Source of the DNA: a virus
Taxonomy: Duplodnaviria; Caudoviricetes
Virus record (IMG/VR): IMGVR_UViG_2907208306_000002
Coordinates: 63,741 to 127,740 of that record
Strand: one strand, 5' to 3'
DNA length: 64,000 nucleotides
Both the position numbers and the translations under genes were made by a program. Shown here piece after piece: positions 6,752 through 56,788 of this stretch; the stretch's first letter is position 1; every line of letters starts with the position of its first letter. The notes beneath the pieces are model-generated. The model saw only the letters and a program-made list of their open reading frames with translations. It did not search any database and was not told the DNA's origin.

Positions 6752-6785
6752 TACATAGTTCTGATGAAAGACACTTTTTTTAAAT

Positions 6786-6811
6786 AGCCTCACTTGCAAG
6801 AGTGGGGCTTT
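6786..6811 (+). terminator. Probable terminator hairpin
   Basis: AGCCTCACT-TGCAAG-AGTGGGGCT-TT. Confidence 0.5.
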
Positions 6812-6838
6812 AACATAAATATCTAACCAACCAGGAGC

Positions 6839-7381
6839 GTGATTATGGGAAGTTTTATTCTCTTCTTGCTGCTAACGCTATCAGCAAATAAGTCTGAATT
6901 AGAGGGCGTTATGAAGGCACAGGAGGCAGCAAACACTATACATAAGCAAAGTGTTCAAGTTGAAATGTTGGATAAGTCAGAGAAAGCGATTGTTAAACAG
7001 GAGCAAAAGGAAAGAGCGACAACAAGTAAAACAAAAGTTAGTAACTCTAGCAAGGTTGCAACAGAATGGAAAACATACACTGTTACCGCCTATGATAACG
7101 GATACGAGTCCACGCAAAAGCGTCCAGGTGATAAGGATTACGGCATTACGAAGAGCGGCGAAAAGACCGTTGAGGGGCGCACAGTAAGCGCAGATCCAAG
7201 AGTTTTGCCATTGGGTACGGTTATTTACATAGAGAATGTTGGGGAGCGCGTAGTAACCGATACAGGTTGGGCAATTAAAGGCAGACGGCTCGATCTCTAT
7301 TTTGAAAGTCATAAAAGGGCGCTTCAATTTGGGAAACAGAAACTGAAAGTTAAAATAATTAAAATGGGTGTGAAAAAATGA
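6839..7381 (+). CDS. 3D-domain cell wall lytic protein (YorM-like)
   Basis: Signal peptide, VTAY, ITKSG, ADPRVLPLGT, DTGWAIKGRRLDLY. Confidence 0.88.
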   Translation: MIMGSFILFLLLTLSANKSELEGVMKAQEAANTIHKQSVQVEMLDKSEKAIVKQEQKERATTSKTKVSNSSKVATEWKTYTVTAYDNGYESTQKRPGDKDYGITKSGEKTVEGRTVSADPRVLPLGTVIYIENVGERVVTDTGWAIKGRRLDLYFESHKRALQFGKQKLKVKIIKMGVKK

Positions 7382-7665
7382 AATCTCAAACGGATTTAAT
7401 TAAAGAAGTGTGTGCGGATGTAGAGGATTTACTGATTAGAAAAAACAATGATTATGGTAATTCATTTAGCCTCCAGTTTGAGAAGTATGGAATTCTCAGC
7501 GCAATAATTCGAATGGATGATAAAATGAGACGTCTTGAGAACCTGATTAAAGGTCATGACCCTCAGGTTGATGAATCACTTGAGGATACACTTAAAGATT
7601 TAGTTGGATATGGGACACTCGCTTTGGTGGAGTTACAAAAAAAGAAAGAGGGATTGAATGACTAA
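7378..7665 (+). CDS. DUF1599 / nucleotide-modification-associated protein
   Basis: KNNDYGNSF...RMDDKMRRL...DTLKDLVGY. Confidence 0.75.
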   Translation: MKSQTDLIKEVCADVEDLLIRKNNDYGNSFSLQFEKYGILSAIIRMDDKMRRLENLIKGHDPQVDESLEDTLKDLVGYGTLALVELQKKKEGLND

Positions 7666-8194
7666 AAAGCGTTTAGCGGTAGACCAGGATAATGTCATTG
7701 CCGATCTACTTTCCTACTGGGTAGACAGATATAACAAGGACTATAATGACAACTTAAAACCTGAGCAGGTAAATGCTTGGAATTGGCATCATTTATGCAA
7801 GCCAGAATGTGGAGAAAAGATATATACATATATGGATGAACCAGATTTCTTCTTAAACCTTCCTGTCATGGAAGGTAGCCAAGAAGTTCTAAAGGAGATG
7901 AATCTAATATATGACATCTACATTGTGACTGCTCCTTTTAACATGAGAAATGTTCTTCCTAAATACGAATGGCTTAAAAGTCACTTCCCGTTTTTGGATT
8001 CTGGTAAATTTGTGTTCACCAGAGATAAATCGATCATTAATGCAGATTATTTAATCGATGATAAGCCGTCTAACCTTGAACATTTCAGTGGCAGCAAAAT
8101 ATTGTTTGATGCGCCTCATAATCAGAATGAGGATAAATATTATCGGGTGAAAACTTGGAATGAAGTAAGAGAAATTCTGCTGGATTGGAAGTGA
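7658..8194 (+). CDS. 5'(3')-deoxyribonucleotidase (HAD, YorS-like)
   Basis: VDQDNVIAD, KYEWL, LIDDK, PHN motifs. Confidence 0.88.
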   Translation: MTKKRLAVDQDNVIADLLSYWVDRYNKDYNDNLKPEQVNAWNWHHLCKPECGEKIYTYMDEPDFFLNLPVMEGSQEVLKEMNLIYDIYIVTAPFNMRNVLPKYEWLKSHFPFLDSGKFVFTRDKSIINADYLIDDKPSNLEHFSGSKILFDAPHNQNEDKYYRVKTWNEVREILLDWK

Positions 8195-8343
8195 AAAACT
8201 TGTTACCGATTAACTTTGAGCGCTTCGCAGAACTTTACAGATACCTGGAAGATGGAGAATGCAGTTATAGTGAGCTGCAGGAACTCAGAGACAAGTTGGA
8301 GGATATCAAAGAAATCGTTGAAGATGCAATGGAGAAGTTTTAA
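8191..8343 (+). CDS. Small hypothetical protein
   Basis: Translated by hand; GTGA overlap, tiles between genes. Confidence 0.55.
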   Translation: MKNLLPINFERFAELYRYLEDGECSYSELQELRDKLEDIKEIVEDAMEKF

Positions 8344-8513
8344 TGAAGCGTTTGAAAACAATTAAATACATATCTGAAACGCTGGTAGAAGATCTGGTTA
8401 ACGATGTTCTTAAAAACAATCGAGACCCTAACCATATGATACAGGCAGCGCTTGAATCTAGAAAGGAATATGGTTTAAAGGTTCAGGAGTTTATAGATAG
8501 ATTAAAGAGTTAA
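8343..8513 (+). CDS. Small hypothetical protein
   Basis: TAATG overlap, RBS GGAG. Confidence 0.6.
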   Translation: MKRLKTIKYISETLVEDLVNDVLKNNRDPNHMIQAALESRKEYGLKVQEFIDRLKS

Positions 8514-8529
8514 GTTGGGAGGTGGTGAT

Positions 8530-8697
8530 ATTTTCCCTGAATTATTCTTTCTTAGTGAAACAGATAGATATTTTATAAAATATAAATTGATAACTGATTA
8601 TGGATTTAAGCTCTATGAACTGGCTTCGTTGTGTGATGTCGATCTTGTAGAATTATTGGAAAATCAAAAAACAGTGACTATTGATAAGGAGAGATGA
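8530..8697 (+). CDS. Hypothetical protein, probable ATT start
   Basis: RBS GGAGGTG precedes ATT8530; track start TTG8515 lacks an RBS. Confidence 0.55.
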   Translation: MFPELFFLSETDRYFIKYKLITDYGFKLYELASLCDVDLVELLENQKTVTIDKER

Positions 8698-8888
8698 TTG
8701 ATCAAATGGTAAGCGAAAATCAAATGCGTAAATTTGTCGACAGTAATTTACCCAATATAAAAGTAAATCATTTTAGTACAGAAAAGAATCAATGGATTTG
8801 TGTTTTTCAAGAGGATTTCAAATATCCCTATATATCATTAACAACGAAGCAAATTGAGGAATCGACAGAACTAATAAAGAGTAAATAA
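8694..8888 (+). CDS. Hypothetical protein
   Basis: RBS, ATGA overlap. Confidence 0.65.
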   Translation: MIDQMVSENQMRKFVDSNLPNIKVNHFSTEKNQWICVFQEDFKYPYISLTTKQIEESTELIKSK

Positions 8889-8913
8889 AACATGTATTTT
8901 AAAATTAGGAGGA

Positions 8914-9174: not shown

Positions 9175-9206
9175 ATAAAACTAGGATTTTATGAGGAGAT
9201 GTTATT

Positions 9207-9395: not shown

Positions 9396-9399
9396 GACT

Positions 9400-9666
9400 T
9401 TGTTTGATGAATTAACGATTAAGAAAAATGATGATAATACATATTCACTTGAAGTAAAAAATGGAGTTGATCAAGCAACAGGAAGAGTAATTGATATTAA
9501 AGTAGATAAAATCGAAAATATTTCTATATATTCTAACAAAGAGACTCCACAGCAATTTGACTTCTTTGCTTCTAAAGACTGGAAAATTAATATTGAAGGA
9601 AATATTATACCAAGTAAAGACGGAGAATTGTGGAGATATGAGGATAAAGGATTTCTAATAAAATAA
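9400..9666 (+). CDS. Hypothetical protein
   Basis: RBS GGAGG and tiling. Confidence 0.65.
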   Translation: MFDELTIKKNDDNTYSLEVKNGVDQATGRVIDIKVDKIENISIYSNKETPQQFDFFASKDWKINIEGNIIPSKDGELWRYEDKGFLIK

Positions 9667-9707
9667 AGATTTGATAGGAAAGGAGAGTATAATAAACTCT
9701 CCACATC

Positions 9708-10037: not shown

Positions 10038-10129
10038 ACATTAAGCCCCTTTATTATTTTATATAACTATTATCGGATTTGGTTTACTGTTTATGAAACT
10101 GATAATTCATCAAGAAAGGAGGGTTCCCA

Positions 10130-10765
10130 TCGAAAATCTGTTCAACTTGTAACCGGTCAAAGGAAGAAAGTGAATTTTATTCAAGAACACAGTCTACTAA
10201 AAAACGTGGAGAGTTTATTTATATTTATCCAGAATGCAAAGAATGCACTAAGAAACGAAGTAGGAAATGGTCAATTAATAATAGAGACAGAGTCCGTAAA
10301 AGTGGAAATAAGCACAATACAAAATTGGACAGAAAACTAGATATGAGAAAGAACAATCAAAAATACAGAGAAAGCGGAGGCTATCGTTCTTGGTTAAACA
10401 GCAACAAAGATAAGATTCAAAAGTATCATGATGCAAAGTTAATGCACCGTACTCATAACATTACTGATGAAGAATGGAAGAAGTGCAAGGAATACTTTAA
10501 TAATTCATGTGCCTATTGCGGACTACATATTGATGACCACTATAGAAAAATAAGAGGTATCAACAAGAAGATTGATCTTCACAAGGAACACGTTGATCAT
10601 AGTGGGGCGAATGACATAACTAATTGTATTCCTTCGTGCTTAAACTGCAATAGTCAAAAATGGGTTTTCGAACTAGAAGATTGGTATAACGTATCAAATG
10701 AAAATTATACATATGAAAGACTTAATAAAATTTATAAATGGTTAAGGAAAGTAAGTTCTTGTTGA
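10130..10765 (+). CDS. HNH endonuclease with N-terminal CxxC zinc motif; start codon atypical or mutated (TCG)
   Basis: CAYCG...KEHVD...NCIPSCLNCN; frame open upstream of track start with KICSTC, paralogous to 14046. Confidence 0.75.
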   Translation, partial: SKICSTCNRSKEESEFYSRTQSTKKRGEFIYIYPECKECTKKRSRKWSINNRDRVRKSGNKHNTKLDRKLDMRKNNQKYRESGGYRSWLNSNKDKIQKYHDAKLMHRTHNITDEEWKKCKEYFNNSCAYCGLHIDDHYRKIRGINKKIDLHKEHVDHSGANDITNCIPSCLNCNSQKWVFELEDWYNVSNENYTYERLNKIYKWLRKVSSC

Positions 10766-10801
10766 AATCAGCATTTCATGAAAAGGGGGTGTCGGAAGGC
10801 T

Positions 10802-10948
10802 ATGACGACTAAGAAAAGTAATCACAAGCATGAGTATGAAATGATTGAAATCAAAGAGGATGGTTGGTTTACTCATGAAATGACATGTAAGATTTGTGGT
10901 CATGTAGGCAATCGTTACAGGATTGGACTGGATAAAGTGATGAAATGA
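10802..10948 (+). CDS. Small Cys/His-rich protein
   Basis: Translated by hand (HKH...CKICG); between two palindromic sites. Confidence 0.55.
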   Translation: MTTKKSNHKHEYEMIEIKEDGWFTHEMTCKICGHVGNRYRIGLDKVMK

Positions 10949-10970
10949 AACTTTTATAAGGAGGTATAAT

Positions 10971-11163: not shown

Positions 11164-11313
11164 ATGAATGTTAAATGCTCCAAGTGCAGCGAAGAGGTAT
11201 TTGAATCTGGATCAATCAGCAGATGCTTGAGATGTGGTAAGCCAACGGAAAGAGAAGTTCCAGGTATAGAGTATTATGAAAATAAATATAAAGTAAAGGA
11301 TGATGAAAAATGA
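11164..11313 (+). CDS. Small zinc-ribbon protein
   Basis: CSKC...CLRCG; ATGA overlap with next gene. Confidence 0.55.
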   Translation: MNVKCSKCSEEVFESGSISRCLRCGKPTEREVPGIEYYENKYKVKDDEK

Positions 11314-11599: not shown

Positions 11600-12187
11600 A
11601 TGGATTTGTTTTTTGCACGTTTGAAAGAATATATGATTAACAATGATTCGTTTGAGGAAATTGATCGTGTGGGATATTATCATACGCTTGAGCAACAGAA
11701 AGAAAATCTGCATGAATTACTTAGTGATTGTAATACATATGATTTCTCGTTTGAGTTTGATAGAACCGGTGATGTCGACAGTTATTACTCTCCAGGTAAA
11801 ATAATCATTAACCTGTATGACAAAAGTAAAATCGACGATTCGTACGCAGATTGGGAAAGACAATTAAATCACTTTTATACCGTTGATTTTGGTATTGAAG
11901 AGCGTTATTGGGGATATTGCACGTGCCAAGACACAGATGAAGGATTTAACTATGTTCATCGATGCTGCGGAAACGGATGTGATTGGGTCGCGCCAAAATT
12001 AAGCGTTACAAAGCATCAAGTATTAACCCATGGAAGTTTTAATGGCATAGAAAGAGATTTATGGAAGCTACAAGAGCAATGGACTGATAACCAAGAGGAA
12101 AGCGATAAGAGAGAGAAGGAAGCACAAATTAAATATATTCAAGATCAGATTGATACATTAAACAAGAAGAAAGAAGCTTTATTGTAA
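11600..12187 (+). CDS. Hypothetical protein
   Basis: RBS; 195 aa with Cys cluster. Confidence 0.75.
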   Translation: MDLFFARLKEYMINNDSFEEIDRVGYYHTLEQQKENLHELLSDCNTYDFSFEFDRTGDVDSYYSPGKIIINLYDKSKIDDSYADWERQLNHFYTVDFGIEERYWGYCTCQDTDEGFNYVHRCCGNGCDWVAPKLSVTKHQVLTHGSFNGIERDLWKLQEQWTDNQEESDKREKEAQIKYIQDQIDTLNKKKEALL

Positions 12188-12241
12188 ATACATATACATA
12201 AGTTTGCATGAAATGAGAATTTGATTTGAAAGGATTGTCGA

Positions 12242-12993: not shown

Positions 12994-13027
12994 ATAATAT
13001 CGTGATTTTATAAAGAAAGGGGTATCA

Positions 13028-13708: not shown

Positions 13709-13759
13709 AAATAAGAATGTATTAATGAAATAGAAATTTGATCAAGAAAGGATGAACAT

Positions 13760-14953: not shown

Positions 14954-15145
14954 GTATGGGGCAGAACTGGCTAGAAGATTACATGAAGTTTAAGGGCATT
15001 ACGCCTTTTGGTATTGTTATGTATCCATTCGTAGCAGCAATTGTAGGAGTTCTATTAACGTTCATGTACATACTAAAAATAACTTATTGGATTCAGAAGA
15101 AATTTTAAAAAAAGAAGTTAAAATGTAAATTTTATCGGAAAGGAT

Positions 15146-16075: not shown

Positions 16076-16120
16076 GGTGAAACATAACTTTTATTAAAAT
16101 ATATGGGAGAGATTAATTAA

Positions 16121-16627
16121 ATGAAACTGTATGAACTTACAGGCATGTATAAGAAATTCAATGATTTCGCCAATGATGAACTCGAAAATGATGTAACCGA
16201 AGACGAGATTCAGGCACTAATTGATAACCTGGAGGCCATTGACGATCTAATTGAAAACAAATGCGAGAACACTGCTAAACTAATGAAGAATATTGAATCA
16301 GATATCAAAGCTCTAAAGGAAGAGGAAGAACGGTTATCTAAGAGACGAAAAGCCCTGCAGAACAGATACGATGGTATTAAAGGGTACATGAAAGTAATGC
16401 TGGAATCTAGCGGTAAACAAAAAGTAAATGCTGGATTATTTAAGATTAGAATTCAAAAGAGCAATCCTTCTCTAGAAGTAATCGACCCAAAACTGATTCC
16501 TAATGCATATAAAATTCCTCAAGATCCTAAAATCGACTCAAAGAGTATTTTAGCTGCCGTGAAAAATGGAGAAAAAATCGATGGAGTTCGACTCGTAGAA
16601 GATAAACAGCATTTAGTTATTTCTTAA
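16121..16627 (+). CDS. Siphovirus Gp157-family protein
   Basis: MKLYELT start, coiled coil IKALKEEEERL, C-terminal PKIDSK...KNGEKIDG. Confidence 0.85.
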   Translation: MKLYELTGMYKKFNDFANDELENDVTEDEIQALIDNLEAIDDLIENKCENTAKLMKNIESDIKALKEEEERLSKRRKALQNRYDGIKGYMKVMLESSGKQKVNAGLFKIRIQKSNPSLEVIDPKLIPNAYKIPQDPKIDSKSILAAVKNGEKIDGVRLVEDKQHLVIS

Positions 16628-16716
16628 TAAAATAAATATATACATATAATTATTTTGGTGGTATAATGACTTCAGTGGGGTTGTATACCACCATTTTTAA
16701 TAAGGAGGGTTAAATA

Positions 16717-16887: not shown

Positions 16888-17102
16888 ATCAGTTCAAGAC
16901 ATATATTCGTTTGATTCAAAATGATCAGTTTGACAATAAAACAGATATCCTTTTTACATATCCAAGACACATGCCAACTCCAATGATTGGTGAGACGATT
17001 AATTATAAAGATGTCGATTATACGGTGACTCATAAGCGTAGTTTACCAGAATACAGTACCATTGTAGTGTTTGTGCAGGAAGACGATATCCAATCGTGTT
17101 AA
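16884..17102 (+). CDS. Hypothetical protein
   Basis: RBS AAGGAGGT. Confidence 0.65.
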   Translation: MNQFKTYIRLIQNDQFDNKTDILFTYPRHMPTPMIGETINYKDVDYTVTHKRSLPEYSTIVVFVQEDDIQSC

Positions 17103-17138
17103 AAGAGTTCTTTTATTTAGAAATGGAGGATAAGATTA

Positions 17139-17795: not shown

Positions 17796-17850
17796 AAACC
17801 CATAACTCAATTAGATGAAAGTTCTACTTAATTCAAAGGAGTTGTTATAG

Positions 17851-18012: not shown

Positions 18013-18052
18013 TACGATGAAAGGCGCGTTTCATGGGGAATGGAGAGGAAAA

Positions 18053-19150: not shown

Positions 19151-19418
19151 GTATACTGGACAACTTCCCATCCACAACAAAATACCTGAAAATCGCATTA
19201 AGCAAGGGGATTTTGTTTACTGCAGTGGTAGTAATGGCGTTTATGATTTTTGGGGATTGTACAACGCAAGTAATAAAGCTGTGGTCGCATTGGATGGTGG
19301 AAGTACTGAATATGTTAGAGGTGAGGAATTGTATCTGTATGGTACATATAGTTATTGGACTATTATCAAGCGTATTCCGTGCAATAAAGCTAACTTGGTT
19401 ATTTCTGAGATTGAATGA
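19137..19418 (+). CDS. Hypothetical protein
   Basis: RBS GGAGG. Confidence 0.7.
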   Translation: MAKIEYTGQLPIHNKIPENRIKQGDFVYCSGSNGVYDFWGLYNASNKAVVALDGGSTEYVRGEELYLYGTYSYWTIIKRIPCNKANLVISEIE

Positions 19419-19457
19419 AATGCGTGTTTGATAAAAATAATGGAGGAGATTAAATAA

Positions 19458-19989: not shown

Positions 19990-20457
19990 TTGGCTCGATT
20001 AAGCGCAGAAAGATTAAGATTACATATCAATAATATCATTACATGGACAGTTAATGAGAATCCTATGTATGAGAATTTTACTATAAAGTTGACTATTCTT
20101 GGTCGCGAGACAGTTCCAGGTTTAAATGGGAGTCATGAGTTGGTTGATGGGAATATCGAATACTTAATGGATACCATAAAAAAATCGCTTGAAGGATTTG
20201 AATATACAGAGTGTGAGTTCTTAGAGCCAGATTTCAAATTTGAAATTAAACGACATGAAGCATGGTATGATAACGGCTTTAAAATCCATCATCCTGTCAG
20301 TTTTGAGTTTATTGTTTGGGTGAATAGCGGTAGATGGAACGGTATATATTCGTGCACTGAATTGGGACATAAATTTTGCATTGAAGAAAATTCTTTAATT
20401 AAGTTCTATGATGATTTGAAAAGCGAATGGGAGAATAGAAAGATTTTAGAATATTAA
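19990..20457 (+). CDS. Hypothetical protein
   Basis: RBS and tiling. Confidence 0.7.
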   Translation: MARLSAERLRLHINNIITWTVNENPMYENFTIKLTILGRETVPGLNGSHELVDGNIEYLMDTIKKSLEGFEYTECEFLEPDFKFEIKRHEAWYDNGFKIHHPVSFEFIVWVNSGRWNGIYSCTELGHKFCIEENSLIKFYDDLKSEWENRKILEY

Positions 20458-20490
20458 AATACATATTTTAAGGAGAGTTGTGGGAGACAA

Positions 20491-21243: not shown

Positions 21244-21537
21244 GGAGGAATTAAGTTGAAAATCCCATTCGGTAAACGCCCTATGTGTTCATGTGGAGTT
21301 AAAATGAAGCTTGTCGAGTACAAAGGATATTACGATGGATTTAAATATTGGTGTTGCGAAAACTGCAATTTAGAGAATGAACTAGATAAATATGAATCAG
21401 ACGATAAGAAGTTTGGAGCATATGCTTAATATGTATTCCAAGCAAATTAGATAAAAGGAATCTTTCATAAAAAACCTGATCGATAGTTTTTCGACATATT
21501 GATACAATTTCCCTCCTTAACAGTAATTAAATACCTC

Positions 21538-26243: not shown

Positions 26244-26248
26244 ATCCC

Positions 26249-26650: not shown

Positions 26651-26816
26651 GATGCACCAACTCCTAAAATTTTTATAAAGACAAATACGAACAGGCATAA
26701 ATGAGAGAATGCTAACATAAAATTAGAAGCAAAGCGTTTCTAATTTACATAGGCATAGTCTACCCTACGGAAAAGAGGGGAAGGGACATCTTATGACAAC
26801 CCTTCCTGGGTCATAA

Positions 26817-26984: not shown

Positions 26985-26999
26985 TATAACCATCTCCTC

Positions 27000-28974: not shown

Positions 28975-29376
28975 ATGATTCAAGAGATTTGGGATTACTT
29001 TAATAAAGAACAAGTAAGAGCTATTGATGTTGTATTCCTATCGTTGCTAACTTCTTTTTTCTTATGGATTATCAACTTTATATTTAAGAAATTAGTGAAA
29101 TTAATGTCCCCAAGAATTGGGAAATTAAAGAAAATCATTGAACTGTATTATAAACTTATATTTAAGAATGTTATGAATGGACGCTATCTTGTGGCTTTGG
29201 AGAGGAGATTGGCAGCAGGTGGCAAACTAAAGTGGTATGAAACCAAAGCATATAATAAATTTAAAGAAGAGATTAGAACATATAATGAAGAACACAAAGA
29301 GGAAATTTCAAAATTGGAAACAAACCTAACTAATCAAGTGAATCACTTAAATAATGAGTTTAAAAATTTTCGTTGA
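28975..29376 (+). CDS. Membrane-anchored hypothetical protein
   Basis: RBS AAGGAGGT; N-terminal TM. Confidence 0.7.
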   Translation: MIQEIWDYFNKEQVRAIDVVFLSLLTSFFLWIINFIFKKLVKLMSPRIGKLKKIIELYYKLIFKNVMNGRYLVALERRLAAGGKLKWYETKAYNKFKEEIRTYNEEHKEEISKLETNLTNQVNHLNNEFKNFR

Positions 29377-29620
29377 AATTAGCCTTTAATTAAGAAGTAG
29401 GAGCATATAGTTATGGGAAGTAATCAAGTATTAAAAGGATTCTTCTTAATTTGTATTCTGGCAGCTCTAATAAATAAATGGTTGCTGCTTGGAGTCTCTG
29501 TTGCCGGTTTGATCATTTTCATTATATCCAAAGTAGAGTTGTGGGAAATAATAAGAGCGTACAGAAATAAAAGGAATAGAGAATAAATCGAATCTTTTGT
29601 ATAGAGGAGACGAATGCTTT

Positions 29621-29989: not shown

Positions 29990-30067
29990 ATAAAATATGA
30001 GTGGAATTAAGGGCAATAGTTATAACTACATAGAACAAATATTTCATTGAGAATGGGAGATAGTTAA

Positions 30068-30409: not shown

Positions 30410-30453
30410 TTGTTTATAAAATTTTCCTTTTATAAAGAAAGAGGGAATTACAG

Positions 30454-30639: not shown

Positions 30640-30677
30640 ATAAAATCTTTCTTTTATGAAGAAATGGAGGAAGAGCA

Positions 30678-30962
30678 ATGAAGATCAATAAAAAATATAA
30701 TTACTGGGAGTTTTATTATGATGAAGAAATGCCTGATACTACATACCCAACTCCGGAAGATCGCCAGTGTATCGGTTCGATTTGGTCAGATGAGTGGAGC
30801 GGACTAGAGTTATTTGAAATTACAGATGAGGAATTGAAGCAACATCTATTACAGGATATAGATAATTGGTATGAGAAAGTTGATAAACGCAAAATCAAAT
30901 CTGCAATCAAGGAACTTAGACAAATTCAGAAAGAAGTTAGCATTTCAGTATTAACTCAATAA
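30678..30962 (+). CDS. Hypothetical protein
   Basis: RBS GGAGG. Confidence 0.7.
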   Translation: MKINKKYNYWEFYYDEEMPDTTYPTPEDRQCIGSIWSDEWSGLELFEITDEELKQHLLQDIDNWYEKVDKRKIKSAIKELRQIQKEVSISVLTQ

Positions 30963-30990
30963 AAGTTTACTTTTACTAAGATAAAGGAGG

Positions 30991-31176: not shown

Positions 31177-31295
31177 AATCCCTTATAAAATAAGGTATTT
31201 TTGAAGAGTAAAACTTGATAAAAGGTTGATTTCATGGAGAATCTGTAATAAAATAAAAATAAGAATAATAAATATAATATACTGGGAGGTGGGCT

Positions 31296-36163: not shown

Positions 36164-36210
36164 ATGAAATCTAGTTTTTATCAAGACAAGAAATAAATAG
36201 AAACAAGCTA

Positions 36211-36239
36211 TTGACAGATTTTAATAAAATAAATATAAT
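36211..36239 (+). promoter_or_regulatory. Consensus SigA promoter
   Basis: TTGACA-17 bp-TATAAT. Confidence 0.85.
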
Positions 36240-36593: not shown

Positions 36594-36881
36594 GTGAAGA
36601 AGAAATTAGCAATAATTTTGTTGTTGGTTGGTTTAACTACCGCATTGACGGCATGTGATTGGAATACGATTCCAAGAAATAATCAAAAGATTGTGGATGG
36701 GAATAGATTCACTGTCAATGGAGGAAGAGTAGACGACATTCAGATCCTAACAGATAGAGAAACTGGTTGTAGATACATAATTTATTACAAGAACGTTGAA
36801 GGGTTAGCTCCATTGTACGGTAAAGACGGGCAAGTTGTTGGATGCGGAGAGCCACTGGTTGATGAGGATCGATTGAAGTAA
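36594..36881 (+). CDS. Small lipoprotein (DUF6440-like)
   Basis: Lipobox LTAC; ILTDRETGCRY. Confidence 0.75.
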   Translation: MKKKLAIILLLVGLTTALTACDWNTIPRNNQKIVDGNRFTVNGGRVDDIQILTDRETGCRYIIYYKNVEGLAPLYGKDGQVVGCGEPLVDEDRLK

Positions 36882-36912
36882 AAGTCGGTTTTTTTAAAAG
36901 GAGAAATAGAAA

Positions 36913-37271: not shown

Positions 37272-37499
37272 ATGAGTTATGCTAATAAACAATTAGAAAA
37301 TGTAAAAACAATCAAAGAAGAGGCAGACTATGTATTTGAAGAAATCAACTCGAACATCTTCACGGTTATAAAAGATAGAGGATGGTTTGCCGGATATGAA
37401 TATGCATCTGCCGATGAAGTCTTGAAGTTTTTAAACTCTGATAGAAAAATCATCATTCTTAATAGAGGATGCACTACAATTCTACATAAAAATTTCTGA
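37272..37499 (+). CDS. Hypothetical protein
   Basis: RBS. Confidence 0.65.
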   Translation: MSYANKQLENVKTIKEEADYVFEEINSNIFTVIKDRGWFAGYEYASADEVLKFLNSDRKIIILNRGCTTILHKNF

Positions 37500-37535
37500 T
37501 AAAAACATACTTTCATTGAGAAGAGGAGGTTTTAA

Positions 37536-40526: not shown

Positions 40527-40576
40527 TACATAGATTTGAATGAAATTGAGTTTTTATCAAGAAAGGGGAGAGCGGA

Positions 40577-40795
40577 TTGTATTTATCCGAAAAGAAAGAA
40601 AAAATTTATGTTATTGGTGTTAAAGATAAAGGCTACATCGATCAAGAGGGATATCTTATCCAAGATGTTTTTAATGCTAAAAGCTACCTGGATCTCGATA
40701 GCGCTAGAGAAAAAGCAGTTTTGTTTGCCGAGTTAGGAGATTTATATATCAGAATACTAATTGTCGATAACGCTGGAGTTGCGAACCTAAAATGA
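40577..40795 (+). CDS. Hypothetical protein
   Basis: RBS; flanked by palindromes. Confidence 0.65.
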   Translation: MYLSEKKEKIYVIGVKDKGYIDQEGYLIQDVFNAKSYLDLDSAREKAVLFAELGDLYIRILIVDNAGVANLK

Positions 40796-40834
40796 AAGAA
40801 CTGTTTTATCAAAAATGAAGGGTGGAATTTTTAA

Positions 40835-41110
40835 ATGACGGAAGGTAAAGTGTTGGCTGTTGCTAAGAAGCCATTATTGTCACGAAAAGTAGCACATGAA
40901 AACGATTATGAAACGGCAGTTAGCCAGTGGGAACTACAAGATCTTTTTTTGTTGCATGGCGGTTCACCAACAATTGATGGCGTGGTAACCATAGACACAA
41001 CCCAAGTAGCCAGACAATTTCCTAGATATAAACTACTATATCCAGATGGATTCGTAGATTACGCCAGGATTGACTCATTCAGTAAATGGTATGACATGGT
41101 TATCAGATAA
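40835..41110 (+). CDS. Hypothetical protein
   Basis: RBS; flanked by palindromes. Confidence 0.65.
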   Translation: MTEGKVLAVAKKPLLSRKVAHENDYETAVSQWELQDLFLLHGGSPTIDGVVTIDTTQVARQFPRYKLLYPDGFVDYARIDSFSKWYDMVIR

Positions 41111-41144
41111 AATACAAGCTTTATTAAGAAATGGAGGAGTCAAT

Positions 41145-41399
41145 ATCATTAGAATGATGCACATCACTATTGAAGAAGTTGTAGAAATAAAAGATCCTTT
41201 GAAACCCTGGATGAAAGGTAACGATGCGGCACAAAAAACAACCGTTTACGCTGAAGTTGATGCAAATAATGAAGTTTCCGAATTGATTGTTTTGGATAGA
41301 GAGATATTTTCTGAAGATAAAAATGTAACAACTGGAGTATCCGAGAAAGAGAGCAGTCTTATAAAGAAGATCATACAGGATTATGTCAAAATGAAATAA
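41145..41399 (+). CDS. Hypothetical protein (start ATC41145 to ATG41154)
   Basis: RBS GGAGG after palindrome 41107. Confidence 0.6.
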   Translation: MIRMMHITIEEVVEIKDPLKPWMKGNDAAQKTTVYAEVDANNEVSELIVLDREIFSEDKNVTTGVSEKESSLIKKIIQDYVKMK

Positions 41400-41441
41400 T
41401 GTTTTTATGCAAATATACATAGCGAAGGAGTAATTTGATAA

Positions 41442-41894: not shown

Positions 41895-41941
41895 AATACA
41901 TATTCAACAAGAAAAATATTATTTTAAAGAGGAGAACATAA

Positions 41942-42133
41942 ATGAGAACACCAACAAAGGATGAAATTGCTCAGGTAGTGGCGGAGATAGCTTTCGGTAT
42001 TGGTTCTATTACACTGACTGACTTCCAACGGTATGCTGTTCAATTGTTTATAGAAGAACTTGTACTCACGGAAGATATTGAATCTTATACAAAAACAGAA
42101 TTGTATTCGTATGTACTAAATTATTTACGATAA
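41942..42133 (+). CDS. Hypothetical protein
   Basis: RBS. Confidence 0.65.
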   Translation: MRTPTKDEIAQVVAEIAFGIGSITLTDFQRYAVQLFIEELVLTEDIESYTKTELYSYVLNYLR

Positions 42134-42424
42134 AAGATATATTTTATTAAGGAAAAGGACTGAGAAATTATATTAACAAGAATTCGAATTTTCCTAAGAT
42201 TAACTAACTTATTATTTCAGACTGCGGTGTTGAGTAAGAACTTTGGAGTCTTTTATAAGAGTTGCGGCTTTTGTAAAGGAGTAATGCATCAAAGAATTAA
42301 TTATACCGAAAATCTTGAAACAGGCAGTTATGAAGCGAAGTTTAGATGTAATAAGTGTGGAGCAATAGGGGCAACGCTAGAGCAATGGAATAAGTAAATA
42401 AAAGAATAGATTAGAAAAGGAGTT

Positions 42425-44841: not shown

Positions 44842-44881
44842 TGGATGAAAGTCAAATTCCATCAAGAAAGGGGTCTTAAAT

Positions 44882-45074: not shown

Positions 45075-45103
45075 TTGACTTAACGTTATAAAATAAATAT
45101 AAT
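45075..45103 (+). promoter_or_regulatory. SigA promoter upstream of the nrd cluster
   Basis: TTGACT-17 bp-TATAAT. Confidence 0.75.
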
Positions 45104-46022: not shown

Positions 46023-49000
46023 CGTTCCAAAGTATATCAAACTTAATAATGAGATTATGATCCAAGATGACGGTAAGTTTCAATTTGAGAAGGACAGAGA
46101 TGCAGTTAAAAGTTACTTTATTGATTATATAAACCAAAACACCGTCTTCTTCCATGATTTAAAAGAGAAATTGGATTACTTGATTGAAAATGACTACTAT
46201 GAAGAAGAATTTCTAAGCAAGTATACATATGAACAGATTAAAGACATTTACAATATCGCCTATGCTAAGAAGTTTAGATTCCCTTCCTTTATGAGTGCTT
46301 TCAAATTTTATAATGATTATGCGCTAAAAACAAACGACAAGAGAAAGATTCTTGAACGTTATGAAGATCGAATTGCTATTGTTGCACTTTACCTGGGCGA
46401 TGGTGATTATGATAAAGCTAAGAAACTGGTTAACGCGCTAATCAATCAAGAGCTTCAACCATCTACTCCAACATTCCTTAATGCTGGTCGCAAACGCAGA
46501 GGAGAACTGGTAAGCTGCTTTCTAATGGAGGTTAACGACTCCTTAAATGACATTTCTAAAGCAGTAGATATGTCAATGCAACTGTCGAAAGTAGGCGGCG
46601 GTGTTTCATTAAATCTCTCTAAGATTAGAGCAAAAGGGGAAGCCATTAAAGGCATCGAGAATGCAACAAAAGGTGTTGTCGGTGTTATGAAGTTGCTTGA
46701 TCACTCTTTTCGATATGCCGATCAAATGGGACAAAGACAAGGGTCAGGAGCGGCATACTTAAATGTATTTCATGCAGATATTAATGATTTCTTAGACACC
46801 AAAAAGATCAGTGCAGACGAAGATGTTCGAGTCAAAACACTCTCAATTGGTGTTGTAATCCCCGATAAATTCATTGAACTTGCTAAAGAGGATAAGGATG
46901 CTTATGTGTTCTATCCGTATACAGTTTATAAAGAATACGGAACGCATCTTGATGATATGGATTTTAATTCAATGTATGATGAGTTGGCAGAAAATCCAAA
47001 TGTCCGGAAAGATAAAGTGAACCCAAGAAAATTGCTTGAAAAGATGGCCATTTTGCGATTTGAGTCTGGTTATCCATACATCATGTTTGAGGATAATGTT
47101 AATGCTGAACACACATTACAGGAAATTGGCAAAGTTAAATTTAGTAATCTGTGTGTTACGGGCGACACAAAACTTCTTACGGCAGACGGATACCGTACAG
47201 CCAAAGAACTTTATAGTGAACAAGAGAACCTTAGAGTAGTGATTGATAATAGAACAAAAGAGTTAGATGCTAACAACAGAGGGACGTCTATTGTAAATGC
47301 TATACCGATGCAATTAACAGCAAAACAAGCTGATGTTTATAAATTGTCTACACAACAAGGCTACGAAATCAATGCAACAGGCTGGCATAAGATGTATGTT
47401 TCCAGGGATAACAAAGTTATCAAAATTCCAATGAATGAGGTTGCTATCGGAGATAAGGTTCTTGTGCAATCAGGAGAAGGTTCTTTTGGTAAAATTCATG
47501 CTCCAGAACTTGCTTACATCGCTGGTCTCATCGCAGGGGATGGATGTATTGATGATACAACGGCAATCATCTATCTGTATGGCAATAAATCTTCAATTAG
47601 AGATCGAGTCGAAAAAAATGTATCTTATATAATTGATCAATACTTGGATAAAAATTTTATATATAAACACAGCGCAAATTTTCATCCAACATTTAACGAA
47701 TCGTCTGATGGATCACGTATTGTATTAACTAGCCAGTTACTTAAAAAAGTGTTAGGTATGTTTTTTATTAATAAAGATACAAAAACTGTAATTCCAGAAA
47801 TTGTGTTTGCCGGAGACAAGGCGACTCAAGCTGCATACCTATCAGGGCTGTATCAAATGGATGGAACAGTGAACTGCAATGAAAGATATAAGGCAGGATC
47901 AATTGAACTAACATCTACAAATAAACAAAGTCTCAAAGAAATTCAGATGATGTTGTTGAATATGGGTGTTTATAGCACCGTTTATAGTTACAACAATGAA
48001 GGTTTGCGATCAATGCCAGATGGGAAAGGTGGATATAAGGATTACTACTGCAAAGAAACGCATAAGATTACTATCCAAGACAGGAACTCTAGGGAACTTT
48101 TTAACTCAATTATAGAGCTCAAAGATACAGATAGAACTAAACTTGCGGATTTCACTAAGACACTAAAACCTAAATCGAGAAATCCGAAGCACAACTATAC
48201 TGCGACTGTCTCTAACATTGAATACATAGGTAAAGAAGATGTATATGACACCACCCAAGAAGACTATCACTCTCTCATCTTTAATGGAATTGTTACAGGA
48301 AACTGTTCTGAAATTCTTCAGTATTCAGATGTTTCATCTTACACAGATTATACCCATGAAGATGAGCTCGGCATGGATATTTCCTGCAACTTAGCCTCTA
48401 TTAATATTGTTAATGTGATGGAGAATAAATCTATCAAAGATACTGTGAAGGTAAGCGTTGATGCTCTGACTACAGTTTCTGAAAAAACCAGTATTGAAAA
48501 TGCTCCTGGAGTACAAAAAGGGAACAATCTAATGAGGTCAATTGGATTAGGGGCAATGAACCTACATGGTTTCCTTGCAAAGAATAAAATCATGTATGAG
48601 AGCGAACAGGCAAGAGATTTCGCAAACACGTTTTTCATGATGGTTAATTATTATTCCATTGAGCGTTCTATGGAAATCGCAAGAGATACCGGCATTAAAT
48701 ACTACGGCTTTGAAAAATCAACTTATGCTTCTGGTGAGTACTTTAACAAGTACACTAACCAAGATTTCAATCCTAACAATGACAAGGTTAAGGCGCTCTT
48801 TGAAGGGATCTATATTCCAACCGTTGAAGATTGGAAAGTGTTAAAAGAGATGGTCATGAAGCATGGTCTTACTAACTCTTACAGACTTGCAATTGCACCA
48901 ACTGGTTCAATTTCATATGTGCAGTCTTCAACAGCTTCTGTCATGCCAATCATGGAGAGAATCGAAGAAAGAACTTATGGTAATTCAAAAACATATTATC

Positions 49001-49263
49001 CAATGCCTTACTTGTCGCCTGAAACATGGTTTTTCTACAAAGAAGCTTATGACATGGATATGTTTAGAGTAGTGGACATGATTTCAACGATTCAACAACA
49101 TATTGATCAGGGCATCAGCTTTACATTGTTTATGAAAGACACTCATACAACTAGAGATTTAAATAGAATCGATTTGTATGCTCATCACAAGGGAATCAAA
49201 ACGCTCTATTATGCCCGAACAAAAGATACATCTAGAGAAGTATGCTTGTCATGCTCAGTTTAA
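46015..49263 (+). CDS. nrdE: Class Ib ribonucleotide reductase alpha subunit with intein
   Basis: [18 protein letters not shown]|CSE, APTGSIS, C-terminal CLSC. Confidence 0.96.
47152..48303 (+). mobile_element. Intein (384 aa) with LAGLIDADG homing endonuclease
   Basis: CVTGDT...IVTGN|C inserted at FSNL/CSEI; [10 protein letters not shown] and [10 protein letters not shown]. Confidence 0.93.
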
Positions 49264-49283: not shown

Positions 49284-50258
49284 TTGACTAAAATTTTTGA
49301 TGCTGCAAATTGGTCTAAACAAGACGATTCATTTACACAGGTTTTCTATAATCAAAATGTCAGACAATTTTGGCTACCAGAGGAGATTTCCCTAAACGGG
49401 GATCTCCTGGCTTGGAAGTCGATGAGTGGACTAGAAAAAGATACATATAAAAAAGCTTTAGCGGGTCTTACACTGTTGGATACAGAACAAGGCAATACTG
49501 GAATGCCAAAGATTTCTGAACACGTAGAAGGACATCAACGGAAAGCAGTTCTTAATTTTATGGCGATGATGGAGAACGCAGTGCATGCTAAATCCTATTC
49601 GAATATTTTCATGACACTTGCTCCAACAGAAGAGATTAACGAATTGTTTGAGTGGGTCAAAGATAATAAATACCTTCAAAAGAAAGCAGAAGTTATTGTT
49701 GGTCTTTATAAAAACATCAAGGATAACGATGAAATTGCACTTTATAAAGCAATGGTTGCATCTGTTTTCTTGGAAAGTTTCTTGTTCTACAGCGGATTTT
49801 ATTATCCTCTTCTCTGCTATGGTCAAGGCAAGATGATGCAAAGTGGAGAAATCATTAATTTAATTATCCGTGACGAAGCTATCCATGGGGTTTACATCGG
49901 TCTATTAGCACAAGAAATCTATAATAAACAAGATGAAAAAACAAAAAATGAACTTATCATCTTTACAACCAACCTGCTCGAAGACCTTTATGAAAACGAA
50001 CTTCGTTATACAGAAGTTGTTTACGACCAAATTAGCTTGGCACACGATGTGAAAAAGTTCGTTCGATACAATGCAAACAAAGCTTTGCAAAACCTGGGGT
50101 TCGATGTCTTCTTTCCAGAGGAAGAAGTAAATCCTGTTGTAATCAATGGATTAAATACAAAAGCAAAGTCACATGATTTCTTTAGCATGAAAGGCAGTTC
50201 ATATCAAAAAGCGAATGTCGAGAGCCTAAAAGATGAAGACTTTTACTTCAGTAACTAA
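49284..50258 (+). CDS. nrdF: Class Ib ribonucleotide reductase beta subunit
   Basis: [27 protein letters not shown]; RBS + TTG49284. Confidence 0.96.
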
Positions 50259-50292
50259 AAAATAAATATAATAAGGGAGTAAACAAATACAT

Positions 50293-54054: not shown

Positions 54055-54148
54055 TCCATTGAGTTGATGAAAGCCGTCTTTTATCAGGATTTTAGGCTAG
54101 AAAACAAGAGAATAAGTGAGCAAAAGAGAGAAAATAGGAGAAAGTTAA

Positions 54149-54782: not shown

Positions 54783-55038
54783 ACCAATCAAGCCATCATT
54801 TGAAGAAATCAAAATCAAACTGGAACCTGATCAATGTTTCTTTTATCAACGTGAGTCTGACGGAGACATTGTTCTGGTGGATGAAATAGAAATATTCGCT
54901 TATGCCAAGCAGATTACATTGATTGGAACACATTTTTCAGTCGATTATGAAGATAAAACAATCAACAAGGCATCGGATCGGAGCTTCATGAACTTTGAAA
55001 CCAACCTATTGGGCGAATATTCGGAAGGTGAGGGTTAA
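54772..55038 (+). CDS. Hypothetical protein
   Basis: RBS GGAGG. Confidence 0.65.
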   Translation: MSNKPIKPSFEEIKIKLEPDQCFFYQRESDGDIVLVDEIEIFAYAKQITLIGTHFSVDYEDKTINKASDRSFMNFETNLLGEYSEGEG

Positions 55039-55040
55039 AG

Positions 55041-55250
55041 ATGTCAGATAATCGGGACTGGCAAGCAGATATGGAACGGAAAATAGGAGAACTCGTTCAA
55101 GTAAAAGGAGATAACATGCGTTACGATTGGACAATTCGTCTCAAAAAGTGGCATGAGGAAACAGGACAAAGTATTTACTTTATAACCCGGCCTGGATATG
55201 AGGGATGGTTTAGCAACGCAGCTCTAATGGATAAGGAGGCTGAAGCATGA
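55041..55250 (+). CDS. Hypothetical protein
   Basis: Tiling. Confidence 0.6.
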   Translation: MSDNRDWQADMERKIGELVQVKGDNMRYDWTIRLKKWHEETGQSIYFITRPGYEGWFSNAALMDKEAEA

Positions 55251-55474
55251 CACCTAATTACTATATGATGTGGATTGAACTTGAAGAAGAAATCAGACGC
55301 TTAGAAGAAATAGGCCATACAGATATAGATTTAGGAGACCTGCAACGAATCATGCATGAACTATATCTAGACAATAGGGATTGAATATAAGGAGAATGAG
55401 GCACGATCAACTAGATCGTGGAACTTAAAAGATTAAATAAAAGTATAGTTTTATCAAAATAAAGGAGGAGCAAA

Positions 55475-55762
55475 ATGAAGTTATTCAGAGTGAAAAACAA
55501 ATTTTCTGGTTATGGTTTGGTAACTTATGTTGTATATGCCAAAGACGAATCAGAAGCAATAAACTTGGCGGGTGAAAAGTTAAGAGAGTATGCGCTTAAA
55601 ACTAACTATAATGTTAATGAAGCAGCATATGCTCAGGTCGGAATAAAAGTTAATAATATCTTTGAATTAATTGATACAGAAGACTACCATACATATTTTA
55701 GTGCAAAATGTTTGTCGGAGGATATTGAGGAAGAACAGATTGTTGAGATGCATTATTTCTAA
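55475..55762 (+). CDS. Hypothetical protein
   Basis: RBS AAGGAGG after palindrome. Confidence 0.7.
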   Translation: MKLFRVKNKFSGYGLVTYVVYAKDESEAINLAGEKLREYALKTNYNVNEAAYAQVGIKVNNIFELIDTEDYHTYFSAKCLSEDIEEEQIVEMHYF

Positions 55763-56143
55763 TACATATTTAGAGGAGCGATTAAATAATTGAATATTGT
55801 TTTCTTTTGGATTTGGTTTGTATTTATGATCGTTCAACTCGTATATGTTGGCATTTATAAAACACTGAAATGGAAGCCATTGAAATGGAATCAATTAGGC
55901 TGGTTTTCCTTAGGATTACTCGATGCCTATCTCACTGGTTTGCTACTAAATTGGAGGTAATATGAAGAAAATTCTAAAGAACTTATGGAATGTTCACAGA
56001 GAACAATATCCCACTGACAAAGAAGAATGGATTGTCTTTATCTCTATCTATGTAATTATGCTGCTAATTTGTTTAATGGGATACTCGGCTACTTACCTAT
56101 AACCAAATAAAAACCATATTTTATAGTGAAAGGAGTGTAATAC

Positions 56144-56386
56144 ATGTTTATCGGTTTCCCTTTAAGTGGAGCGTTATGGGGATTTGTAATTATGGTGGCC
56201 AGTATTATATTTTGGAACCTACAAACATTTGTTTTTTCTCTGTTATTGATGATCATATGCTTAATTACAACGTACAGACTGTATGAATATTCACAATGGA
56301 AAGGAATGCAGCATGATAAACAATTTAAAGGATTACATAACTCTGATTTGCAGTTTGATGATAATGATTCCACTATTAAAAGATAA
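56144..56386 (+). CDS. Small membrane protein
   Basis: RBS; two TM segments. Confidence 0.65.
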   Translation: MFIGFPLSGALWGFVIMVASIIFWNLQTFVFSLLLMIICLITTYRLYEYSQWKGMQHDKQFKGLHNSDLQFDDNDSTIKR

Positions 56387-56421
56387 AATACATAGCTGGC
56401 TGAAAAAGAGGAGAGAGTATT

Positions 56422-56754
56422 TTGAAAAATGAAATTGTTCAATACTTTGTAGTAAACAAAGAACTCAATATGTCACCAGGTAAAATAGCGGCACAAGTAG
56501 CGCATGTAGCAACTAACATTACCCACAATGATAACGAAACAAGATTGTGGAGTGAATGGTATGCAAATGACCAACCGAAAATCATCCTTCGAGGAAAAGA
56601 AAGGGATTTACTTAAACTCATCGAGCAGGGATGGTATTACATACGAGATAATGGAAGGACAGAGATTCCAGAGAATTCTTTGACAGTCGTAGGTTGTGCT
56701 CCAAATTATAAGTCTGAGCTTCATAAGCAGGTAAAAAGGTTTCAGCTTCTTTAG
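56422..56754 (+). CDS. Peptidyl-tRNA hydrolase, Pth2 family
   Basis: MSPGKIAAQVAH, KIIL, DNGRTEI, TVVG. Confidence 0.85.
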   Translation: MKNEIVQYFVVNKELNMSPGKIAAQVAHVATNITHNDNETRLWSEWYANDQPKIILRGKERDLLKLIEQGWYYIRDNGRTEIPENSLTVVGCAPNYKSELHKQVKRFQLL

Positions 56755-56788
56755 TAATAGAGGTGTTGAACAATGCATTTTAAGAGGA

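Follow-up and report, generated by a model that had tools for sequence, protein, structure and literature searches.

Core sites of tyrosine recombinases consist of two inverted arms around a 6–8-bp overlap, with arms of 13 bp in loxP and FRT, 11 bp in dif and about 7 bp in the lambda core, and homology between the overlaps of the two partners is required by Cre, Flp, lambda Int and XerCD. In integrons, the attC sites are imperfect palindromes of 57–141 bp (R''-L''/L'-R') that are recombined as folded single strands. For phages, Botstein's modular theory reportedly predicted short conserved linkers between interchangeable modules, and to our knowledge such linker sequences have rarely been found. 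Here, we analyzed a stretch of 64,000 nucleotides (positions 63,741 to 127,740 of the IMG/VR virus record IMGVR_UViG_2907208306_000002), hereafter called the window, which forms the right half of an SPβ-like prophage in a Paenibacillus genome and in which an 18-bp dyad recurs between small genes. In our reading, to which we assign a probability of about 0.6, each of these sites is a crossover point with an address of its own, at a fixed place on a cassette boundary of the SPβ-like prophage.

Each site is composed of the arms ATRAAA and TTTYAT around a 6-bp spacer (N6), and the arms are often longer (TTGATRAAA and TTTYATCAA, in a 9-6-9 arrangement). The pattern ATRAAA-N6-TTTYAT was found 18 times without mismatch in the window against 0.7 expected, and the wider pattern ATRAAA-N6-TTTBAT used in a preliminary description of this DNA gave 40 strand-matches (22 sites) against 0.73 expected from shuffled sequences. 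A test of the spacing had been set beforehand in that description and was clearly passed: 22 matches were counted at N6 and 0–2 at every other spacing from N0 to N14, and the reversed arm arrangement gave zero at N6 in the window. Counted over the entire prophage, perfect sites at N6 numbered 31 and those with one mismatch also 31, where other spacings gave about 0.4 perfect and about 9 one-mismatch matches; the two-mismatch class showed no excess (94 versus about 120). The real sites of the prophage number about 50, and 31 of the 34 perfect sites of the 7.87-Mb genome fall within it. All 38 sites listed previously exist where they had been placed (16 perfect, 16 with one mismatch, 6 with two). 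The six with two mismatches are candidates by context, of which two (20454 and 29583) are independently supported by identical spacers in collinear position in 3–4 relatives. The list was not complete, a perfect intergenic site at 4004 having been missed.

The sites lie mostly between genes. Coding sequence makes up about 79% of the element, yet 26 of the 31 perfect prophage sites fall outside it; of the 57 matches at control spacings, 34 are inside genes. The usual layout is a stop codon, which overlaps the site or ends at most 13 nt before it, then the site, a ribosome-binding site (RBS) of the form yAAGAAAGGAGG and the next start codon, as described initially. Distances are typically −9 to +13 nt from stop to site and 13–25 nt from site to start, and the ATRAAA arm itself contains TAA or TGA. 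Of the 73 co-directional window junctions whose gap is 25 nt or longer, 34 carry a site; 35 more junctions are tightly coupled. The right arm and the RBS lead, about 18 nt, are similar at many junctions. At 113663-113715 and 132746-132795 of SPβ (NC_001884), a site is followed by the identical longer leader TTAGARTAAAAATAAAAT..GGAGG, so that some junctions have more in common than the 18-mer. The statement that no site interrupts the helicase-primase, nrd, agr or tubZ operons held at one mismatch or less, but a few in-coding matches at chance level do occur (25204, 25667, 37624 and 53319).

Between phages the arms vary where they are degenerate (ATAAAA, ATGAAA or GTAAAA on the left; TTTCAT, TTTTAT or TTTGAT on the right) and the AAA-spacer-TTT core is fixed, with an arm centre-to-centre distance of 12 bp. 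Positions 3 and 16, the only variable arm pair, could base-pair in 28 of the 38 sites, when independence alone would give 27.6; in the ten others this pair is non-pairing, and arm mismatches are uncompensated. The mean folding energy of the 18-mers (−0.4 kcal/mol) did not differ meaningfully from that of shuffled sequences. Given the fixed spacing and the lack of a pairing constraint, the dyad is best read as the DNA site of a putative dimeric protein. It is not restricted to this prophage. In SPβ, 14 perfect ATAAAA-N6-TTTTAT sites were found, against 0–3 matches at other spacings, typically in the order stop, site, RBS, and some of the SPβ sites lie between convergent or divergent genes. Seven Paenibacillaceae prophages carry 4–12 sites each per 40–60 kb over a near-zero background, and a Paenibacillus dendrobii locus has 12 sites in 21.6 kb. 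The common arms and the N6 peak are thus found in SPβ, phi3T, the seven Paenibacillaceae prophages and P. dendrobii. A scan of viral contigs with the extended palindrome returned mostly single chance matches in AT-rich contigs.

All 62 spacers of the prophage are distinct, in agreement with the first impression that the spacers all differ. In order to evaluate their conservation, we compared orthologous sites of different phages. In 79 orthologous site pairs from diverged alignments (mean block identity 79%), identity was 92.8% in the spacer, 88–89% in the arms and 55–62% in flanks at fixed offsets. Grouped by orthology, the sites fall into 35 sets; the spacer does not vary in 26 of them, compared with 13 for the left arm, 9 for the right arm and 1–3 for flank hexamers. 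The window has 10 spacers in common with relative G344, 11 with G089, 6 with G391, 7 with G289, 8 with G279, 9 with P. dendrobii and 4 with an IMG/VR contig, against 0–1 for control hexamers. Collinearity was perfect in all seven comparisons, the longest increasing subsequence being equal to the number of matches (permutation p at most 0.002 in six of them, 0.049 in the remaining one). When weaker arms were allowed in the relatives, 25 of 39 window sites had a partner, compared with 6 of 39 controls. Together, these results show that the spacer is a locus address, unique within a genome, conserved and collinear between phages.

The addresses persist while the genes beside them change. In 51 of 58 shared-address pairs, no homologue of the up- or downstream window open reading frame (ORF) was detected on the matching side of the partner (tblastn, E < 0.01). 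Neighbours that are shared are 43–79% identical, so real orthologues would have been detected. At address GAACTG the next gene differs in each of six phages, and the orthologue of ORF 11600-12187 precedes TGAGAA in the window and TGTAAA in G344. P. dendrobii has the one-gene unit 30640-30976 too, its two sites and their spacers TCTTTC and GTTTAC intact and its outer flanks unrelated. Partner sites share about 12–13 contiguous identical bases, as the degenerate arm positions differ. Between the window and SPβ no spacer is common (0 of 38 x 49), indicating that address sets are lineage-specific. A tie of the sites to orthologous genes was considered and rejected (5 shared versus 29 unshared downstream of stops; 2 versus 34 upstream of starts); this unlinking, first taken as rapid turnover, has its explanation in the addresses, which keep their place in the order of the genome and not beside a given gene. 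Since the spacers are conserved collinear addresses, the data point to exchange between same-address sites of different phages and not to shuffling among the sites of one array, as had been proposed, and the tolerance of heterologous overlaps known from Tn916-type integrases need not be invoked.

No closer relative of the prophage was found in the phage collection, genome contigs or viral contigs, and its family relatives are 64–76% identical in core genes, most small genes being unique. Because these relatives are too diverged, nucleotide-level mapping of breakpoints was moved to Spbetavirus, using SPβ, phi3T, Goe13 and Goe14, which are related genomes, so that pooled p-values overstate the significance. 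In SPβ, 15 of 27 site-bearing gaps (56%) are gene-content breakpoints, compared with 19 of 91 other gaps (21%; p = 0.0012), and the odds ratio was 4.7–7.7 in each of the four genomes (about 5). The difference persisted among co-directional gaps of 40–70 nt (breakpoints in 19 of 31 with a site versus 5 of 25 without, p = 0.003) and within variable neighbourhoods (14 of 24 versus 3 of 17, p = 0.012). Homology edges fall at the site edges: homology starts at site positions −10 to +6 in 29 of 35 cases and stops at +13 to +30 in 17 of 27. The breakpoint check proposed along with the first list of sites was therefore borne out. At 23 site junctions with one homologous and one unrelated flank, the spacer was fully identical in 17 as scored and in at least 19 after two 1-nt offset corrections, which argues that the edge is not a BLAST run-through of the conserved arms. 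Addresses ttctaa and ctaata keep their left neighbour in one phage pair and their right neighbour in another, indicating that exchange takes place to either side of the spacer. Several "islands", identical sites of which both flanks are unrelated, are also common to SPβ and phi3T.

Junctions of laboratory phi3Ts x SPβ hybrids and extrachromosomal DNA are available (bioRxiv 10.1101/2020.05.06.055103). Dragos et al. number 16 sites of recombination, of which 15 are at homology, and add the non-homologous N1 (Suppl. Table 1 of that preprint). Their chromosome coordinates were converted to SPBc2 with K = 2,286,447, a conversion inferred from the supplementary table and checked by three other junctions, which fell at alignment block ends within 2 nt. 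Junction J7 ("30 bp" homology) corresponds to the island AAATAAAATGCATATTTTAAA, that is to the site ATAAAA-TGCATA-TTTTAA, which is present and identical in SPβ and phi3T between unrelated flanks. The SPβ end of N1, the only non-homologous junction, maps to SPBc2 116414, where the perfect site ATAAAATATTCCTTTTAT begins; an identical 18-mer of phi3T stands 14 nt away from the phi3Ts side of N1. Both low-homology laboratory events therefore involve these sites. In phi3T (KY030782), three tandem ATAAAA hexamers stand upstream of the site matching SPβ 116414 (107914-107948), and N1 appears to use the outermost of them.

We then considered which protein could act on the sites. Two PF00589 proteins with the R..HxxR..H..Y signature are encoded in the prophage, one YopP-like and one YomM-like. 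A YopP-like recombinase outside the window had been suggested, and the gene is indeed there, its catalytic signature intact; the protein is 58–64% identical in five relatives and ranks among their best-conserved proteins. A RecD/UvrD-like gene and an HTH_36 gene lie downstream of it. Judged from these sequences, the YopP-like enzyme is the prime candidate for reading the sites. Invariant arm positions next to the spacer, degenerate outer ones and an asymmetric 6-bp spacer identical between partners but different between loci form the pattern that tyrosine-recombinase core sites requiring overlap homology would show. The inverted arms would bind the recombinase and the identity of the overlap would select the partner site. 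Given the order of stop, site and RBS, an exchange at a site would swap whole translation units. With two related phages in one cell, same-address exchange would replace the genes between addresses and leave gene order unscrambled; co-infecting or resident relatives could in this way swap accessory genes locus by locus with synteny kept. Whatever the mechanism, the sites likely serve as points of exchange. A site-specific tyrosine recombinase is a possible agent of this exchange, proposed here with more reserve. The same reserve applies to the fuller proposal that SPβ-like phages may have a natural recombinase-mediated cassette exchange, in which about 50 heterospecific sites with 6-bp overlaps serve a YopP-family enzyme as lineage-wide addresses.

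The initial idea of a cassette-capture system is thus partly sustained by the breakpoints, the N6 spacing and the YopP-like gene, and loses its integron-like character and its heterologous overlaps. Several observations weigh against the sites being crossover points or against the enzyme. About 55% of the Spbetavirus breakpoint junctions have no recognisable site, and sites stand at both ends in only about 4 of 19 replaced SPβ/phi3T segments. The relatedness of the four Spbetavirus genomes inflates the pooled statistics. In five Paenibacillaceae prophages the junction test was uninformative (66% versus 62%, p = 0.5), being saturated, as breakpoints make up about 60% of all their junctions. N1 fits a crossover in an ATAAAA hexamer 14 nt off the phi3T site better than one within the site, and the natural swap of the "s" fragment between phi3T and phi3Ts has no sites at its boundaries. 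Of the 16 numbered laboratory sites, 15, J7 with its 30 bp among them, used ordinary homology, nearly all of it long (bioRxiv 10.1101/2020.05.06.055103). YopP of SPβ reads HxxK where HxxR is expected, and the arms are short for a recombinase core site. Finally, the conservation of unique spacers could reflect an expression-related function at each junction.

This last point leads to the explanation that the sites are conserved intergenic linkers with an expression-related role, exchanged through host RecA or Sak4/YorG-type annealing with no dedicated enzyme and only for being the one sequence that otherwise unrelated neighbours have in common, which we regard as unlikely but as the most serious of the rivals. 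Formally, J7 is a 21–30-bp homology event and N1 a 6-nt microhomology event, most laboratory junctions are ordinary homologous recombination, the Sak4/AAA_24 gene of the window speaks for an annealing protein, and the 18 nt of right arm and RBS lead offer similarity at many junctions. Regulatory cassettes of T4-type phages, the promoter early stem-loop elements (PeSLs), can mediate shuffling and form mini-circles (PMC2839356). Yet partner sites offer only the 12–13 contiguous identical bases mentioned above, and an RBS is present at every junction while site-free ones are breakpoints 3–5 times less often. Homology-driven exchange needs no common dyad with exact N6 and leaves unexplained why spacers are conserved above coding sequence, and the sites are without promoter or terminator component. 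A different role, in which a dimeric phage or host protein silences or times each small gene from an array of operators or roadblocks and the link to mosaicism is indirect, is improbable. About 50 intergenic copies within operons, the 12-bp arm distance typical of dimeric binders and several helix-turn-helix proteins encoded near the lysogeny module would suit it, and stoperators provide a precedent of 24–34 intergenic sites (PMC3029335). This model predicts neither a unique conserved spacer nor the persistence of a site while both neighbours change, and the arms are identical in phages whose MrpR repressors are 27% identical, whereas the stoperator consensus differs between heteroimmune phages. 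In SPβ, chromatin affinity precipitation sequencing (ChAP-seq) of MrpR gave ten peaks, all at SPBRE promoters (PMC10516654). The 10-mer common upstream of 9 of the 10 MrpR-bound SPβ genes is AATATGTATA, which is not the dyad, and SroF/MrpR binds a 24–26-bp asymmetric operator as a monomer (bioRxiv 10.1101/2025.11.27.690993).

The least probable explanation, to which we give very little credence, is an RNA intercistronic element, a hairpin or protein site in the mRNA acting in processing, stability or translation of the next cistron. The constant placement 13–25 nt before the start, beside the RBS, would suit such an element, and phage precedents exist in intercistronic processing sites and RegA-type translational repressors. 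The absence of pairing covariation and the shuffle-like hairpin energies given above are against it, and the perfect DNA dyad together with the SPβ sites between convergent or divergent genes favours DNA recognition; nor would an RNA element explain the breakpoints or the collinear addresses. The operator and hairpin alternatives raised originally are thus both weakened. Known elements of other kinds were considered as the identity of the dyad and rejected. The SPBRE/MrpR operator was ruled out by sequence, copy number and binding mode. YonO promoters were ruled out as well, since transcription of the late operon by YonO has a single start site (PMC5467207). The flanks have no conserved −35/−10 of sigma-A promoters, the sites have no terminator-like hairpins, a structured RNA is contradicted by the lack of both covariation and a stable fold, and two features annotated as "palindrome" in the SPβ record differ in sequence from the dyad.

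The window corresponds to C11:531799-595798 of the host genome (7.87 Mb, about 52% G+C), and positions are counted from its first letter. The prophage spans about 131.5 kb (C11 ~466.5–598 kb) at 31–40% G+C (about 35%), has an SPβ-like gene content, and its closest titled relative is the P. dendrobii prophage. Related prophages in other Paenibacillaceae genera are also at 33–38% G+C, indicating that the phage lineage keeps its own base composition. Genes were positioned with a simple RBS-scored ORF caller, so that starts are approximate and stops exact. The coordinates of the sites and of other features are summarized in the table.

Dyad sites of the window and other features of the prophage. 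Mismatches are counted against ATRAAA-N6-TTTYAT; the strand of sites is given as "."; "address" marks a spacer with a partner in relatives, which are given by genome (G) where named. Positions are those of the window unless a contig is named.
Feature	Position	Strand	Mismatches	Spacer	Remarks
Site	4004..4021	.	0	GAATAA	intergenic; weak same-spacer match in G051 only
Site	6764..6781	.	1	GACACT	after Sak4/YorG-like gene; spacer also in G292
Site	8885..8902	.	1	CATGTA	overlaps stop; next start 20 nt on
Site	9175..9192	.	0	CTAGGA	0 nt past stop; start 14 nt on
Site	9658..9675	.	1	TAAAGA	
Site	10093..10110	.	1	CTGATA	
Site	10762..10779	.	1	TCAGCA	spacer in G289, collinear
Site, address	10940..10957	.	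0	TGAAAC	G089, G279, G292
Site, address	12208..12225	.	1	TGAGAA	G089, G279
Site, address	12994..13011	.	1	TCGTGA	G089, G391
Site, address	13725..13742	.	1	TAGAAA	G089, G391, G279
Site, address	15118..15135	.	1	TGTAAA	G344, G289, G279
Site	16077..16094	.	1	CATAAC	
Site	17099..17116	.	1	GAGTTC	
Candidate	17815..17832	.	2	GTTCTA	context only
Site	18017..18034	.	0	GGCGCG	then RBS, ATG at 18053
Site, address	19415..19432	.	1	TGCGTG	G344, G089
Site, address	20454..20471	.	2	TACATA	collinear in G344, G089, G289
Site	21451..21468	.	0	GGAATC	ends a + unit
Candidate	29373..29390	.	2	TTAGCC	context only
Site, address	29583..29600	.	2	CGAATC	collinear in G344, G089, G391, G289
Site, address	30030..30047	.	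1	CAAATA	G344, G279, P. dendrobii
Site, address	30416..30433	.	0	TTTTCC	G344, G089, G279
Site, address	30640..30657	.	0	TCTTTC	left edge of one-gene cassette common to P. dendrobii
Site, address	30959..30976	.	1	GTTTAC	right edge of cassette 30640-30976
Site, address	31218..31235	.	0	GGTTGA	five relatives
Site, address	36164..36181	.	0	TCTAGT	after primase-like gene, upstream of consensus sigma-A promoter
Candidate	36878..36895	.	2	GTCGGT	context only
Site, address	37499..37516	.	0	ACATAC	P. dendrobii, IMG/VR contig L037
Site	40540..40557	.	0	TTGAGT	
Site, address	40792..40809	.	0	GAACTG	five relatives, flanking genes differ in each
Site, address	41107..41124	.	1	TACAAG	
Site	41391..41408	.	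0	TAATGT	
Candidate	41910..41927	.	2	ATATTA	context only
Site, address	42130..42147	.	0	GATATA	
Site, address	44845..44862	.	1	GTCAAA	seven relatives
Site, address	54067..54084	.	0	GCCGTC	four relatives
Site	55437..55454	.	0	GTATAG	
Site	56107..56124	.	0	ACCATA	
YopP-like tyrosine recombinase	C11:508311-509351 (L044:2311-3351)				22 kb upstream of window
YomM-like tyrosine recombinase	C11:486577-487599 (L043:577-1599)	-			
Sigma-A promoter repeat	11265-11295, 16615-16645, 36211-36239, 45075-45103, 50245-50275, 63030-63060, about 31250				head early transcription units; match 12/12 at 36211-36239, 11/12 at 45075-45103
MrpR/SroF-family repressor	281-1312	+			PF22822/PF22823
Sak4/AAA_24 protein	5615-6751				
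NrdE	46015-49263				split by intein with LAGLIDADG domain
TubZ/ATPase block	23561-28534	-			TubZ at 27000-28079
MazF/PemK toxin gene	C11:529018-529407 (L045:3018-3407)				just upstream of lysogeny module

The prophage has its own promoter repeat, TTGAC(A/T)-N17-TATAAT with a common TAAAATAAATATAAT core, which is likely the counterpart of the SPBRE-bearing, MrpR-controlled promoters of SPβ. As separate sigma-A promoters head the units, the dyad sites lie inside transcription units. The repressor of the window belongs to the PDB 8a0a family and has a tyrosine-recombinase fold; in the alignment its first Arg is kept and the box-II His is absent. A YopQ-like gene precedes it and runs into the window start. 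The MazF/PemK gene nearby recalls that lysis-lysogeny control in SPβ and phi3T works via host MazEF. Other window genes encode primase-like and RecJ-like proteins, NrdE, a Y-family polymerase, TubZ and a PolIII-alpha 56% identical to that of large Bacillus phages. The bnrdE gene of SPβ is likewise interrupted by an intein. The TubZ block also contains a small partner ORF upstream and a 794-aa ATPase with a weak match to TrwB/coupling proteins, and the GC skew flips at the block. Outside the window, the prophage encodes YonO RNA polymerase (52% identical to that of SPβ), HU-like YonN, and YopQ-like, YopP-like and SprA-like proteins.

These observations touch the long-standing question of how phage genomes stay collinear while accessory genes turn over. 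The linkers described here form an explicit, countable set. Their grammar is simple, with arms in common and a conserved spacer unique to each, and they occur in SPβ/phi3T, a well-studied system with tractable genetics, so that the mechanism is directly testable in B. subtilis. If a recombinase reads the sites, a function could be assigned to the conserved YopP-type recombinases, and the mosaic genomes of a large prophage family of Bacillus and Paenibacillus, which carries anti-defence, toxin and communication genes, would be accounted for. In that case a set of orthogonal recombination sites would also be at hand. Even with homology as the driver of exchange, unique 6-bp spacers conserved above the coding level would remain an unexplained constraint. 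No prior description of the dyad was found in the literature searched, which did not include the 1999 SPβ genome paper, where an earlier mention is possible.

Like SPBRE, the sites are a repeated cis-element of the same phage family, and the SPBRE binder has a tyrosine-recombinase fold; SPBRE differs in its core (AATATGTATA), in being present in about 10 copies, at promoters, and in being bound by a monomer. Stoperators of cluster A mycobacteriophages are likewise dozens of short intergenic sites across a temperate phage (PMC3029335, PMC9283540). However, they are 13 bp long, asymmetric, oriented with transcription and follow an immunity-group consensus, whereas the dyad has symmetric, constant arms, identical across phages with divergent MrpR, and site-specific spacers. 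With PeSLs of T4-type phages the sites share the nature of short repeated intergenic elements in hyperplastic regions of small ORFs, at the boundaries of indels and replacements (PMC2839356, PMC4122927), as expressed here by the odds ratio of about 5. PeSLs consist of a sigma-70 promoter and a terminator stem-loop and recombine by homology; the sites have neither component and carry unique conserved spacers.

In integrons and in the pdif modules (XerC/XerD) of Acinetobacter plasmids, accessory genes are also bounded by recombinase-type sites, and modules are exchanged between replicons. The label "integron-like" used at first is nevertheless not appropriate. The sites are 18 bp long with no stable fold and no attC-type structure, the nearest recombinase is 22 kb away, and there is no integrase-adjacent attI or Pc; several ordinary sigma-A operons are present instead, in which cassettes keep their own RBS, and exchange appears to be address-specific and not directed at one attI. 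From pdif the sites appear to differ in having no dif-like 11-6-11 arms, ATRAAA/TTTYAT being unlike the inner arms of dif (CATAA-N6-TTATG). Botstein's linkers would have here an explicit, numerous and individually addressed form. The closest grammar is that of heterospecific lox/FRT sites as used in cassette exchange, which likewise have inverted arms, a 6-bp asymmetric spacer and invariant spacer-adjacent positions, with a spacer that differs within a genome and is identical between presumed partners, and where the genes between addresses are replaced with their order kept. In our sites the arrangement is 6-6-6 or 9-6-9 with a sharp N6 peak, and partners have identical overlaps in 26 of the 35 groups of orthologues, at 17 of the 23 mosaic junctions as scored (at least 19 after the offset corrections) and at J7. 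The differences are that the arms are only 6–9 bp and that about 50 natural sites occur per genome. The nearest analogues are therefore lox/FRT for grammar, PeSLs for phenomenology, integrons and pdif for accessory genes bounded by sites, and Botstein's linkers for the concept.

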